Below are positions 19,280-22,099 of a DNA stretch of 36,646 nt, piece by piece. The notes below the pieces were generated by a model, which saw only the letters and a list, made by a program, of their open reading frames with translations, searched no databases and had not been told where the DNA came from. Position 1 is the first letter of the stretch, and each line of letters begins with the position of its first letter. This DNA is from an uncultured Candidatus Saccharibacteria bacterium. Its GTDB lineage: Bacteria; Patescibacteriota; Saccharimonadia; CAILAD01; BJGX01. Location: the NCBI GenBank assembly GCA_964552475.1, contig CAZKFZ010000007.1, positions 1 to 36,646 on the forward strand, read 5' to 3'. Made by a program: the position numbers and the translations under genes.

Positions 19280-22099
19280 TTACAAAACCTTCAAATTCTT
19301 GAATTTCTTGTGTTTTCTTAGTTTTGCAACACATTTATCAACGCTTTTGCTAATGTATTTTAAGCTTGGGTTAGAACCACAATCCAATACTATTCTAATA
19401 CTTAGCCTTTTTTTATTAATCTTAATAAGTTCTGGGTTTATAAAAACACTCACAAGCTGTACTTTTCTAATATTGTCGCTGGTAGTTAAATTGTCTACCA
19501 CATCCTGCCACCAAACATTACTATCCACTTCAATAGTAATATCGCGCTGATTAAGTTGGTAACCAAGTGGTAATTCTATTTTTGCGTACTTGGGAGTTAG
19601 TAAGTCTTGTGACATCTCAATTTCGGCATAGCTAATCTCATTGTTAAATTTTTGATTTACTAGTATTACGCTATCTACCTGTCCAAACCATCCAATAGAC
19701 TTATTATTTACCAAAATATCTGCAGCTCTACCTGGTACAAAAAGATTATTATTACCTGGAACAATTTTATGTTTCCAACGATATTTTTGAGCTATCTCTC
19801 CAATAACTGTACCTAGTCTATCGATACTATTTTTGCCCACCAATGTTATTGCTAGCTTCCACGTCTCACTCTTGCCGTGTTTTTCATTTTTTGACTTATT
19901 ATATACTCTTGAAACTTCAAAGAAACCATAGCTTTCTTTCCAGTAGTCGCGATTATTAACTGCCGTCTGTATGTGACTCATGATTAGTGTGCTACGTAAA
20001 AACTCCTGTTCTTTGCTAAGTGGGTTTACTATTTTAAAATGCTTATCGGTTTCACTTTTGGCGAGCTGGAGTTGCTTGTGACTCACAAATGAGTATGTCA
20101 TTACCTCATACAGACCATTTGTGACCAGGTTATTTTTTAATTCTTGTGCTTTTAATATAAGCTGATGGTCGGCAGTGTTTGTTGGTGGTAGCTGGGGGAG
20201 GGTGGCGGGCATATTTTCATAGCCAACTATTTTGGCTACTTCTTCATATAAATCCTGTTCTATTTTAATATCATCTCGCCACCAAGGAGCTGTAACAGCG
20301 ACTGTATGATTGAAATTATCTACATAACGTCTAGCACCAAGATAGCCAGGGTTATTTGCAAACTCTTTTAGATCAACTTCAATAACTTCTTGATTATTTC
20401 TTTTCACCCATTTTTTATTTTTATATTCATACATTGCGGCCATTACAACTTTGTTATTACCAATATACAATCCGTTGTGACCAACTTCTTTTTTTTGTCT
20501 AAGCTGTTGTTTTACGTGTTTTCCGTGGTTATCTTTTAAGTAATAGTGATCATCTACCGAATTCTCTATTTTACCTTTATAAAAAACTACATCTCCTGGT
20601 TTTAAGTTACTAACTTCTATGGCCTCTCCGTGTTCGAATTGTGCCAATGCAGTATGTCCTATGTATACGCCTATAAGTGAGTATACATAATCAATAAGAT
20701 ATGAGCAGTCAAAAGCATTAATTCCATCTTCTTTAAAATTCGCCCCCCATTTGTATGGTTTACCCAAGTGCTTTTTAGCTTCTTTGGTAATAGAGAATTG
20801 TTCAGCCTCAAACCCTCTTTTACGTAGTCCGTTAATAACCTCTTTTTCATTTAACTTAAGACCTAAGAACTTTTCGGCTTTTCGAATTCGTAATCCAGTA
20901 TGTTGAATCCAGGGCCAATCATAAAGTTGATCGAAAGGACCATTAATAATTTTGGCTTGGCAAATAGTTTTGAATAAATAAAGAAGACGTTCAGTTGCAT
21001 AAATTGAGAGGGGGAGAGGTAAGCCTTTTTCAAACCTAGCACTTGCTTCCGTGCGAATACCATGACGATTAGCCGACCTACGTATTCTAGTGGCATTAAA
21101 ATTAGCAACTTCTAATACAATCTCTTTTGTATTATTATCAACTTCGGTGTTTACACCACCCATTACTCCGGCCAAACCAATAGCACTACTATTGTCGGCT
21201 ATTACTATGTCTTCTTTACTGAGTTTTCTATCTACACCATCTAGTGTGGTAATTGTTTCGTTATTTTTAGCAAACCTAACTTGTAAATTTCCTTTTAGTT
21301 TGGTTTTGTCATATGCATGAGAGGGTTGACCAGTCTCTAGCATTACAAAGTTGGTGATATCTACAATAGGATTAATCGGTCTCATCCCAGCCGCCTGTAA
21401 GTTTTCCACAATCCAGTCGGGTGTTTTACTCTGAATATTTATTTGTAAAACTGCGCTTACAAAGCGCTTACACTCAACGGTTTCTTTGACCTTTACGACT
21501 TCTCTATCTCTAAATTCAATTTTTGCATGCTCTGGCTCAGCTAACTCAGTACCAACGGAATTTGCAAAAATTTCTCGTGCTAAACCATAAACAGAGAGCA
21601 TGTCGGGGCGGTTTGTAGGGGTCTTAATATCCACGATATCACCCATATTGTCTATGTCGCACAATGATATACCAAGGGGGAGGTCAGGGTCGAGAACAGC
21701 TATACCAGAGTGGTCATCTCCTCTACCCAACTCTCTTTCTGAGCAAATCATACCTGAAGATTTTTCACCACGTAGTACTACTTGCTCAATCTTATCACCA
21801 CTTGGTAAAATTGCACCTGGTTTTGCATAGGCTACTACTTGACCTTCTCTTATATTCGGGGCACCACAAACCACCTTAGCTTTAGTTTTACCAAACAAAA
21901 CTTCTGCGACTTTCAAACGATCGGCATTTGGATGTTGCTTAGTTTTTAAAACCCTAGCAGTTACAATTTTCACATCTAAGTTATTAGAAGTTATAATTGA
22001 CTCCACTTCAACTTCTGTTTTCTCTAGCGCAGTGACAATACTGTCTGTACTAAGAGGTTTTTTAAAGTATAGGTTTAAGAAATTAACAGGTAAAAGCAT
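19280..22099 (-). CDS. pheT: phenylalanine--tRNA ligase beta subunit carrying an inserted NlpC/P60-like domain
   Basis: The ORF shows a tRNA-binding OB domain ([12 protein letters not shown]...CGAPN), a B3/4 domain ([15 protein letters not shown]), a B5 domain ([30 protein letters not shown]) and a C-terminal FDX-ACB-like domain. I place the start at ATG 22099, one nt after the pheS TAA, rather than at the overlapping track start 22144. Confidence 0.93.
   Translation of the reverse strand: [939 protein letters not shown]

Follow-up and report, generated by a model that had tools for sequence, protein, structure and literature searches.

A complete NlpC/P60 cysteine-hydrolase domain nested in the B5 domain of phenylalanyl-tRNA synthetase beta of Saccharibacteria and part of the Parcubacteria

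The 36.6-kb stretch of Candidatus Saccharibacteria contig CAZKFZ010000007.1 considered here (the window) carries pheS and pheT, which encode the alpha and beta subunits of phenylalanyl-tRNA synthetase (PheRS), with the stop codon of the former and the start codon of the latter lying one base apart. The 939-residue PheT is of the bacterial type, scoring 590 bits against the NCBIfam model TIGR00472 (pheT_bact; cut-off 403), and its Pfam domains comprise tRNA_bind (residues 45-144), B3_4 (residues 210-380), tRNA_synthFbeta (residues 631-829) and a B5 domain recovered in two stretches, together with a weak FDX-ACB match (residues 847-929; 22.7 bits, below the cut-off). The start codon agrees with the N-termini of homologues, and the list of open reading frames (ORFs) shows the frame to be unbroken throughout. 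Between the two parts of B5 lies a segment of 163 residues which forms a complete papain-like domain of the NlpC/P60 family (MEROPS C40); the domain is lodged in a surface loop of B5, and the PheRS beta subunit around it is otherwise of canonical bacterial form (Table 1).

The interruption of B5 is evident from both profiles and alignment. The B5 profile is broken between positions ~36 and ~37 by ~161 residues, the second Pfam stretch (residues 597-627) covering profile positions 37-67, and in the alignment with E. coli PheT (3pco_B, 7n8y_B) nine residues between Ec437 and Ec447 stand opposite ~170 residues in the query (432-603). The inserted segment matches PF00877 at 48.7 bits (E 8e-13) within the whole protein and at 55.4 bits (E 7e-15) on its own, against a cut-off of 23; its NCBIfam matches are P60, RipC, RipA and RipB, and its sequence matches in the PDB are NlpC/P60 chains. 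The LRAT/H-RAS-like family PF04970 is not matched in Pfam (E 0.061, 14.1 bits, cut-off 24.3), so that an acyl-transfer mode can be invoked for the insert as a mechanistic analogy only. Pfam and NCBIfam place only PheT domains on either side of it, the protein itself starting with B1/B2, and neither an export signal nor a wall-targeting domain was found. An NlpC/P60 domain within B5 had been proposed in the initial annotation at 20309-20794 on the minus strand (residues 436-597), which is the segment given in Table 1 less one codon, and that proposal is borne out by Pfam, by the alignment to E. coli PheT, by AlphaFold2 and by Foldseek; the profile search it suggested for the 939-residue protein returns both PF00877 and B5, the latter in two stretches. 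The motifs it quoted are likewise all present, namely GKPYKWG, FDCSY with Cys465, [14 protein letters not shown] with His541, and YLGARRY, as is the Met at the third triad position (Met553, 12 residues after the His).

Structural predictions point in the same direction. An AlphaFold2 model of the first half of B5, the insert and the second half of B5 (B5a, insert and B5b), built on 38 diverse homologues, displays a mean predicted local distance difference test score (pLDDT) of 95.9 and a predicted template modelling score (pTM) of 0.90; the latter is high for a two-domain construct and is suggestive of a single rigid unit composed of B5 and the insert. The insert itself is modelled with a papain-like fold, as anticipated in the initial annotation, and its nearest folds in the PDB are NlpC/P60. 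Of the 61 PDB matches that Foldseek gave at E ≤ 0.001, 50 were listed, and each of these is an NlpC/P60 enzyme. The best of these is Clostridioides difficile Acd24020 (7cfl), with a template modelling score of 0.84-0.88 normalised to the target, a probability of 1.00 and, for chain 7cfl_B, a score of 0.88 and a root-mean-square deviation of 2.0 Å, and further matches include Trichomonas NlpC1/2, the diffocin hub hydrolase, MepS, LytE, CwlO, SagA and RipA. Compared with the matched enzymes, the insert has two extra beta-hairpins, at residues ~511-539 and ~556-571, the lengths of which vary among relatives. The model of full-length PheT has a local pLDDT of 90.8 and a pTM of 0.65, and does not fix the positions of the domains relative to one another. 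B5 packs against helices of the editing domain and against the alpha subunit (PMC12449066), and from these contacts we infer that the insert lies near the part of PheRS that handles the tRNA 3′ end.

Conservation of the active site was evaluated in 119 full-length homologues, aligned from the best 120 matches of a full-length search. Both Cys465 and His541 are kept in 104 of them. The third polar residue of the NlpC/P60 triad is absent from the window, with Met553 in its place, and present in most relatives: amongst the 104 Cys/His-intact homologues the position is occupied by Gln (32), Glu (20), His (19), Met (17), Thr (12), Asp (3) or Ala (1), inserts of the Parcubacteria type have His (57/60) or Asn (3/60), and 74 of 100 free-standing relatives have His. 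With His, Gln or Glu in the majority of relatives, the Met at 553 is derived in the window's clade; on the PheT-core tree this position changes often. The groove motifs PY, DCS, [R/H]-x(4)-Q and PGD are kept (Tyr449, Asp464, Ser466, Arg/His482, Gln487 and Asp503). The other 15 homologues lack the Cys and/or the His. Twelve of these, all Saccharibacteria PheTs of 871-885 residues (P0103, P0105, P0106, P0111, P0113-P0115, P0119-P0121, P0125 and P0126), harbour a shortened insert of 107-122 residues in which the catalytic Cys is gone in every case and the His in all but one, and three further homologues have lost one catalytic residue. Complete deletion of the insert occurs in none of the 119. 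This repeated loss of Cys or His with the insert kept indicates that catalysis is dispensable in some lineages, and the shortened forms offer natural 'dead-domain' controls for functional work.

Purifying selection on the insert is no weaker than on the rest of PheT. Amongst Cys/His-intact sequences the mean pairwise identity is 51.9% for the insert and 46.3% for the remainder of the protein, the corresponding values by domain being 53.8% for B2, 54-59% for B5, 36% for B6/7 and 31% for B8. Compared with the closest relative, a member of the same Met clade (L001), the ratio of nonsynonymous to synonymous substitution rates (dN/dS) comes to 0.076 in the insert, compared with 0.092 in B3/4 and 0.108 in the rest, and against a second relative (L002) the dN of the insert is about half that of the rest of PheT. 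Inserts without Cys/His show only 34% identity to intact ones, which share 52% amongst themselves, whilst the core of the same proteins is unchanged at 46%. That the insert alone accelerates once its catalytic residues are lost implies extra constraint on the intact inserts, which are conserved and probably catalytic.

Table 1. Positions of the features discussed (all coordinates refer to the window)
Feature	Position	Strand	Evidence or remark
NlpC/P60 (C40) papain-like insert, residues 436-598, 163 aa	20306..20794	(-)	Pfam PF00877, AlphaFold2, Foldseek
Codon of catalytic Cys465 (D-C-S motif)	20705..20707	(-)	Cys in 105/119 close homologues, 60/60 Parcubacteria-type, 99/100 free-standing
Codon of catalytic His541	20477..20479	(-)	His in 106/119 close homologues, 60/60 Parcubacteria-type, 100/100 free-standing
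Codon of Met553, third triad position (His+12)	20441..20443	(-)	Alignment
First half of B5, residues 401-435	20795..20899	(-)	Pfam B5 stretch; E. coli PheT alignment up to query 432 = Ec437
Second half of B5, residues 599-630, PWWRxD...EE motif	20210..20305	(-)	Pfam; E. coli alignment restarts at query 603 = Ec447
B3/4 editing domain (His261, Glu330, Thr350, Ala352)	20960..21472	(-)	Pfam B3_4, 204.9 bits
pheT, 939-aa bacterial-type PheRS beta	19280..22099	(-)	ORF and profiles; ATG at 22099, stop at 19280-19282
pheS (PheRS alpha)	22101..23093	(-)	Pfam tRNA-synt_2d, 294.6 bits, and Phe_tRNA-synt_N
YkuD L,D-transpeptidase, PG_binding_4, N-terminal membrane anchor	17741-19219	(-)	Directly downstream of pheT
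Small hydrophobic ORF, ~125 aa, ~4 membrane-spanning segments by eye	23105-23491	(-)	Directly upstream of pheS; no Pfam match

With regard to its distribution, the nested architecture is an old inherited trait of the Candidate Phyla Radiation (CPR), being the normal form of PheT in Saccharibacteria and in part of the Parcubacteria. The insert occupies the same position in all 119 aligned homologues, down to 41% identity; these derive from NCBI, JGI, ENA and Logan assemblies, and a precomputed PF00877 match exists for 109 of the 120 best matches. The nearest relatives of the window's PheT are metagenome-assembled genomes (MAGs) of Saccharibacteria, and a scan of one genome per GTDB species yielded 70 insert-bearing loci. 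By their titles these are Saccharibacteria, Saccharimonadia or Patescibacteria, with the exception of a few labelled only 'bacterium', a single 'Howlettbacteria' and a single 'Nanoarchaeia' MAG. The contig of the last (L023, DATIHE010000064.1, Candidatus Nanoarchaeia) has pheS and an insert-bearing pheT, both of the Saccharibacteria type, at 53% identity to the query region, and its label in the public record most likely results from mis-binning.

Beyond these close relatives, the insert alone was compared exhaustively with 1.84 billion representatives, which produced 8842 matches at E ≤ 0.001; 152 sequences were classified (the best 150 plus extras). Fifty of the 152 are PheT-like, and all 50 have the domain at the same core position, so that the alignment of relatives called for by the initial annotation maps the insertion to one B5 site in both the close homologues and the PheT-like representatives. 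A word-index search of a 5.8-billion-protein set, again with the insert alone, returned six short matches and missed the PheT family. The PheT-like representatives fall into the Saccharibacteria type (group A), a type of 770-860 residues without B2 and with database names from the Parcubacteria group (GW2011_GWA2_39_18, Terrybacteria; group B), and a divergent full-length type (group C; P0271 and P0273). Many CPR PheRS-beta proteins lack B2 (PMC5370408). Amongst 117 relatives of one group B protein the insert is present in 49 and absent from 68 (664-740 residues), which makes for a patchy distribution in Parcubacteria. A neighbour-joining tree of 194 domains does not resolve a joint clade of Saccharibacteria-type and Parcubacteria-type inserts to the exclusion of free-standing domains; it is from the identical insertion site, and not from the tree, that we infer a single origin. 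Ten Firmicutes loci from the scan of GTDB species that matched query residues 9-230 (L071-L080) were considered as a second PheT lineage and rejected, the two that were read (L071 and L072) being secreted tandem NlpC/P60 proteins.

Automatic annotation names the insert-bearing proteins 'phenylalanyl-tRNA synthetase beta subunit' or 'beta subunit-related protein', and fragments 'C40 family peptidase'. No description of an NlpC/P60 domain within PheT was found in the searchable literature. The novelty suggested by the initial annotation thus stands insofar as the architecture is undescribed there, and falls insofar as it is not peculiar to one genome, since hundreds of machine-named database entries share it. 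Both parts are of known kinds, and it is their nested combination, its phylogenetic breadth and its derivatives that appear to be undescribed.

The canonical editing site remains in place in proteins that carry the insert. Counterparts of E. coli H265, E334, T354 and A356 are near-invariant amongst the homologues (His in 119/119, Glu in 118/119, Thr or Ser, and Ala or Ser, respectively), which rules out the insert as a replacement for a lost B3/4 site and makes it an addition to editing rather than a substitute. The initial annotation suggested editing-like ester or amide hydrolysis, or moonlighting, as candidate roles.

As to what the insert may do, we tentatively favour, at somewhat less than an even chance and from sequence comparisons, a cytoplasmic thiol hydrolase or transferase linked to PheRS and tRNA-Phe, rather than a cell-wall enzyme. 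The preference stems from the exclusive association of the domain with tRNA-Phe enzymes and from the survival of a B5-NlpC/P60 unit beside a single-chain PheRS, both of which are described below. In such an enzyme His541 would activate Cys465, and the resulting thiolate would attack the carbonyl group of an ester or amide derived from an amino acid, either borne by tRNA-Phe or released by PheRS, candidate substrates being an aminoacyl or N-acyl-aminoacyl ester. The thioester intermediate would then be hydrolysed or handed to an acceptor, giving the synthetase an extra quality-control or transfer step. Because the third triad residue is Met, the window's clade would rely on a Cys-His dyad, probably with altered efficiency. 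Thiolate attack, thioester formation and hydrolysis or transfer are the established chemistry of papain-like NlpC/P60 enzymes, which would here be carried over to a synthetase.

The first of the leads that tie the subfamily to tRNA-Phe enzymes comes from the domain tree, in which five 'free' NlpC/P60 proteins nest within the clade of groups B and C. Two of these, P0290 (225 residues) and P0299 (198 residues), align to positions 6-208 and 16-204, respectively, of the 217 positions of a group B profile that spans B5a, NlpC/P60 and B5b, and by their sequences each represents the composite module, both halves of B5 included, as a free-standing protein. The P0299 gene (JGI 3300071358, on a 228.7-kb contig, and 3300071325) overlaps the end of a 383-residue gene with tRNA-synt_2d and FDX-ACB domains. 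A tRNA-synt_2d core with FDX-ACB is the architecture of single-chain, mitochondrial-type PheRS, and a bacterial single-chain PheRS, here on an apparently CPR-like contig, would be notable in itself. On the 3′ side P0299 is followed by a Peptidase_C39_2 gene, a 168-residue gene and then gyrB, and P0290 has the same C39_2 neighbour. Since the group C locus and insert-less Parcubacteria share the order pheS-(small ORF)-pheT-gyrB, the P0299 mini-gene occupies the pheT slot; the simplest reading is that in this lineage the rest of PheT would have been lost and the B5-NlpC/P60 module kept.

A second lead is provided by P0283, which is the C-terminal part of a 318-residue protein (L086 2773-3729, plus strand) in which Pfam detects TYW3/Taw3 (142 bits) followed by NlpC/P60 (63.7 bits). 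The N-terminal part matches structures of archaeal Taw3, a wyosine methyltransferase of tRNA-Phe (AF_2059, APE0816 and PH1069), and the NlpC/P60 part displays 48-55% identity to the Parcubacteria PheT inserts (E 1e-41 to 1e-44), to which it is closer than it is to the other free-standing domains in the set. Neighbouring genes encode a Taw2/Trm5-like protein (L086 878-1702, plus strand), a GatA fragment and a pyridoxal-phosphate-dependent decarboxylase. According to the NCBIfam descriptions, Taw2 and Taw3 act on G37 of tRNA-Phe; with Taw3 and PheT, one NlpC/P60 subtype is thus joined to two unrelated enzymes that share tRNA-Phe as substrate. The locus, on contig Ga0315289_10048201, consists of archaeal-type genes and is low in GC by eye. 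Amongst the other stand-alone proteins, P0002 adjoins a rhomboid protease and P0322 a gene with a class II-type HGTP anticodon-binding domain, neither of which is decisive.

A more specific form of the tRNA-Phe-linked proposal, and one that we consider quite improbable, is that B5-NlpC/P60 would be a tRNA-Phe-directed thiol enzyme whose Cys465 takes up an acyl group as a thioester before hydrolysis or transfer to an amine acceptor. The acyl group might come from the Phe ester at A76 or from an acyl on a Taw2-type amino-carboxypropyl side chain at position 37. Hydrolysis would represent a new synthetase-linked proofreading, and transfer a Fem-like, ribosome-independent aminoacyl transfer, for instance to a peptidoglycan stem peptide. 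If correct, it would jointly explain the stem-peptide-binding ancestry of the domain, its association with tRNA-Phe enzymes in bacteria and at an archaeal-type locus, and the survival of the module beside a single-chain PheRS.

Several observations weigh against a role on tRNA-Phe. The closest relatives of the insert in sequence and structure are all peptidoglycan gamma-D-Glu-diamino-acid endopeptidases, and we know of no such enzyme that acts on tRNA-linked substrates. The window's own PheT has Met as its third triad residue, and on the core tree Cys or His has been lost ~7 times independently within Saccharibacteria, with a shortened insert retained. The single-chain PheRS context is confined to two contigs from related samples, and a full pheT may lie elsewhere in the genome. 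The Taw3 fusion is one sequence on two contigs, a metagenome scan having given only the same sequence on a longer contig, and is for this reason a lead rather than proof. Moreover, many Parcubacteria manage without the insert (the 68 of 117 relatives noted above), and at the loci examined these have no separate NlpC/P60 gene beside pheST; a simple 'split versus fused' pattern was dropped on that account.

The foremost alternative, which we judge rather unlikely, is that the insert has retained the chemistry of its ancestors and works in the cytoplasm as a murein-peptide amidase, splitting the gamma-D-Glu-diamino-acid bond of free stem peptides or of precursors, with PheT serving as a stably expressed carrier; in an auxotrophic epibiont, its role would be the scavenging or recycling of peptides, in the manner of YkfC. 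The best sequence and fold matches of the insert are indeed to DL-endopeptidases (P60, RipC, Acd24020, LytE, CwlO, MepS and the YkfC homologue 3h41), and the groove motifs of these enzymes are kept. The gene neighbourhood also includes a YkuD L,D-transpeptidase directly downstream of pheT, which is found in 51 of ~54 Saccharibacteria loci with enough flanking sequence, down to 26% identity (at ~5500-7400 in L001-L070), and a small membrane protein gene that is conserved upstream of pheS. However, the transpeptidase synteny is absent from group C and insert-less Parcubacteria loci, where gyrB lies 3′ of pheT, and as an upstream Trp/TyrRS gene is conserved as well (35 loci), it may reflect general gene-order conservation of Saccharibacteria, although it could also point to a genuine connection of the hydrolase domain in PheT with wall remodelling. 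An amidase also fails to account for why the domain is nested strictly at a single B5 site even in deeply separated CPR lineages, why both B5 halves are retained after the rest of PheT is gone, and why a Taw3 protein at a wyosine locus of archaeal type carries this same subtype.

An improbable reading is that the insert acts as a structural or binding module and is not catalytic, or at least not in the window's clade. On this view the fold would be kept for the sake of B5 or of an interface with a subunit or partner, and the Cys-His pair would be a slowly decaying relic or would bind a ligand without cleaving it. The Met at the third position in the window's clade and the Thr in a sister clade accord with such a role, as do the 15 homologues without Cys and/or His, in which the ~7 losses never led to full deletion, and the high pTM of B5 with the insert; catalytically dead NlpC/P60 proteins do exist, and the NCBIfam model RipD, described as 'inactive', is amongst the weak matches. 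Against this, the Cys/His pair is kept in full-length inserts, including 17 of 17 Met-clade sequences, active-site motifs are conserved beyond the needs of folding, the dN/dS of the insert in the Met clade lies below that of the rest of PheT, and the insert alone accelerates where catalysis has been lost.

The prospect of an artefact or selfish insertion, be it an assembly chimera or an intein-like or mobile element, is practically negligible: the architecture is unusual and the insert starts with Ser and ends with Asn-His, but its frame is open, the same in-frame site recurs in all 119 homologues from independent assemblies and in 70 species genomes, its GC content is close to that of the rest of pheT (0.33 versus 0.37) and purifying selection on it is strong. 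A chimera is excluded, at the level of sequence data, by the presence of the same architecture in independent assemblies down to 41% identity. An intein or mobile element is likewise ruled out, as Pfam finds no Hint/intein domain in PheT and the residue after the insert is Ile in 87 of 119 homologues, and therefore no splicing nucleophile. The order of preference consequently runs from the tRNA-Phe-linked enzyme through the murein-peptide amidase and the structural module to the artefact, with the remaining probability falling to other functions.

Some further features of these loci and of the window may be recorded here. The small membrane ORF upstream of pheS was recovered by tblastn in 22 loci (Saccharibacteria and L081), with identities ranging from 93% to ~55% in Saccharibacteria; in loci of the Parcubacteria type or group C (L081 108-476, L082 1124-1513) the identity is 24-33% (E 6e-6 to 2e-14 in a tiny database). 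Loci of these latter kinds also possess an ORF of 122-141 residues between pheS and pheT (L081 1618-2022, L082 2576-3001, L088 4636-5004), which is highly charged and Lys/Glu-rich in L081 and L082 and has no significant Pfam match in any of the three. The window contains no such ORF, pheS and pheT abutting one another. Across the whole window no tRNA gene was found, and 19 of 24 ORFs of at least 120 residues lie on the minus strand. The region 12285-17239 on this strand includes an 833-residue protein with a weak match to TrwB/type IV coupling proteins, which adjoins a 779-residue PKD-domain protein.

tRNA synthetases are amongst the best-studied enzymes. Here, a phylum-level group of host-dependent, ultra-small bacteria, including human oral Saccharibacteria lineages, keeps a cysteine-hydrolase domain under strong selection in an essential synthetase subunit. 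If the domain is active, PheRS would have gained a second and chemically new proofreading or transfer activity, or a cell-wall-peptide enzyme would be wired to translation, the latter in organisms that scavenge amino acids and wall components from their host. With a single cysteine in a single protein, the insert offers a handle on CPR-specific biology and could be a lineage-specific target. Two of the related finds are of interest in their own right, namely the Taw3 fusion and the free-standing B5-NlpC/P60 gene that adjoins a single-chain PheRS.

When compared with known systems, the insert most closely resembles the secreted C40 DL-endopeptidases, such as Acd24020 (7cfl), Bacillus subtilis LytE and CwlO, E. 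coli MepS/Spr and Listeria P60, with which it shares the fold, the Pfam family, the Cys and His positions and the groove motifs. Those enzymes are secreted or lipid-anchored and usually carry LysM, SH3b or other wall-binding domains, whereas the PheT insert lacks a signal peptide, lies inside a cytoplasmic synthetase subunit, and differs further by its two additional beta-hairpins, by DCS-Tyr in place of DCS-Gly and, in the window, by the Met at the third triad position. YkfC-type enzymes are cytoplasmic gamma-D-Glu-L-diamino-acid endopeptidases of murein peptide recycling, and a Bacillus cereus homologue (3h41) is a fold match at Foldseek rank 24. They share with the insert the condition of an intracellular NlpC/P60 domain, but are free-standing, carry SH3b domains, and are neither nested nor linked to a tRNA enzyme. 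Hydrolytic editing domains are well known in synthetases, namely CP1 in Leu-, Ile- and ValRS, INS in ProRS and B3/4 in PheRS beta, and display the same principle of a hydrolase spliced into or appended to a synthetase, without kinship to the insert in sequence or fold; to our knowledge, none of them is papain-like or uses a catalytic cysteine nucleophile. Finally, the gene preceding P0299 has the domain pair of a single-chain PheRS, whilst the window encodes a standard two-subunit alpha/beta PheRS with the NlpC/P60 domain nested in the latter chain.

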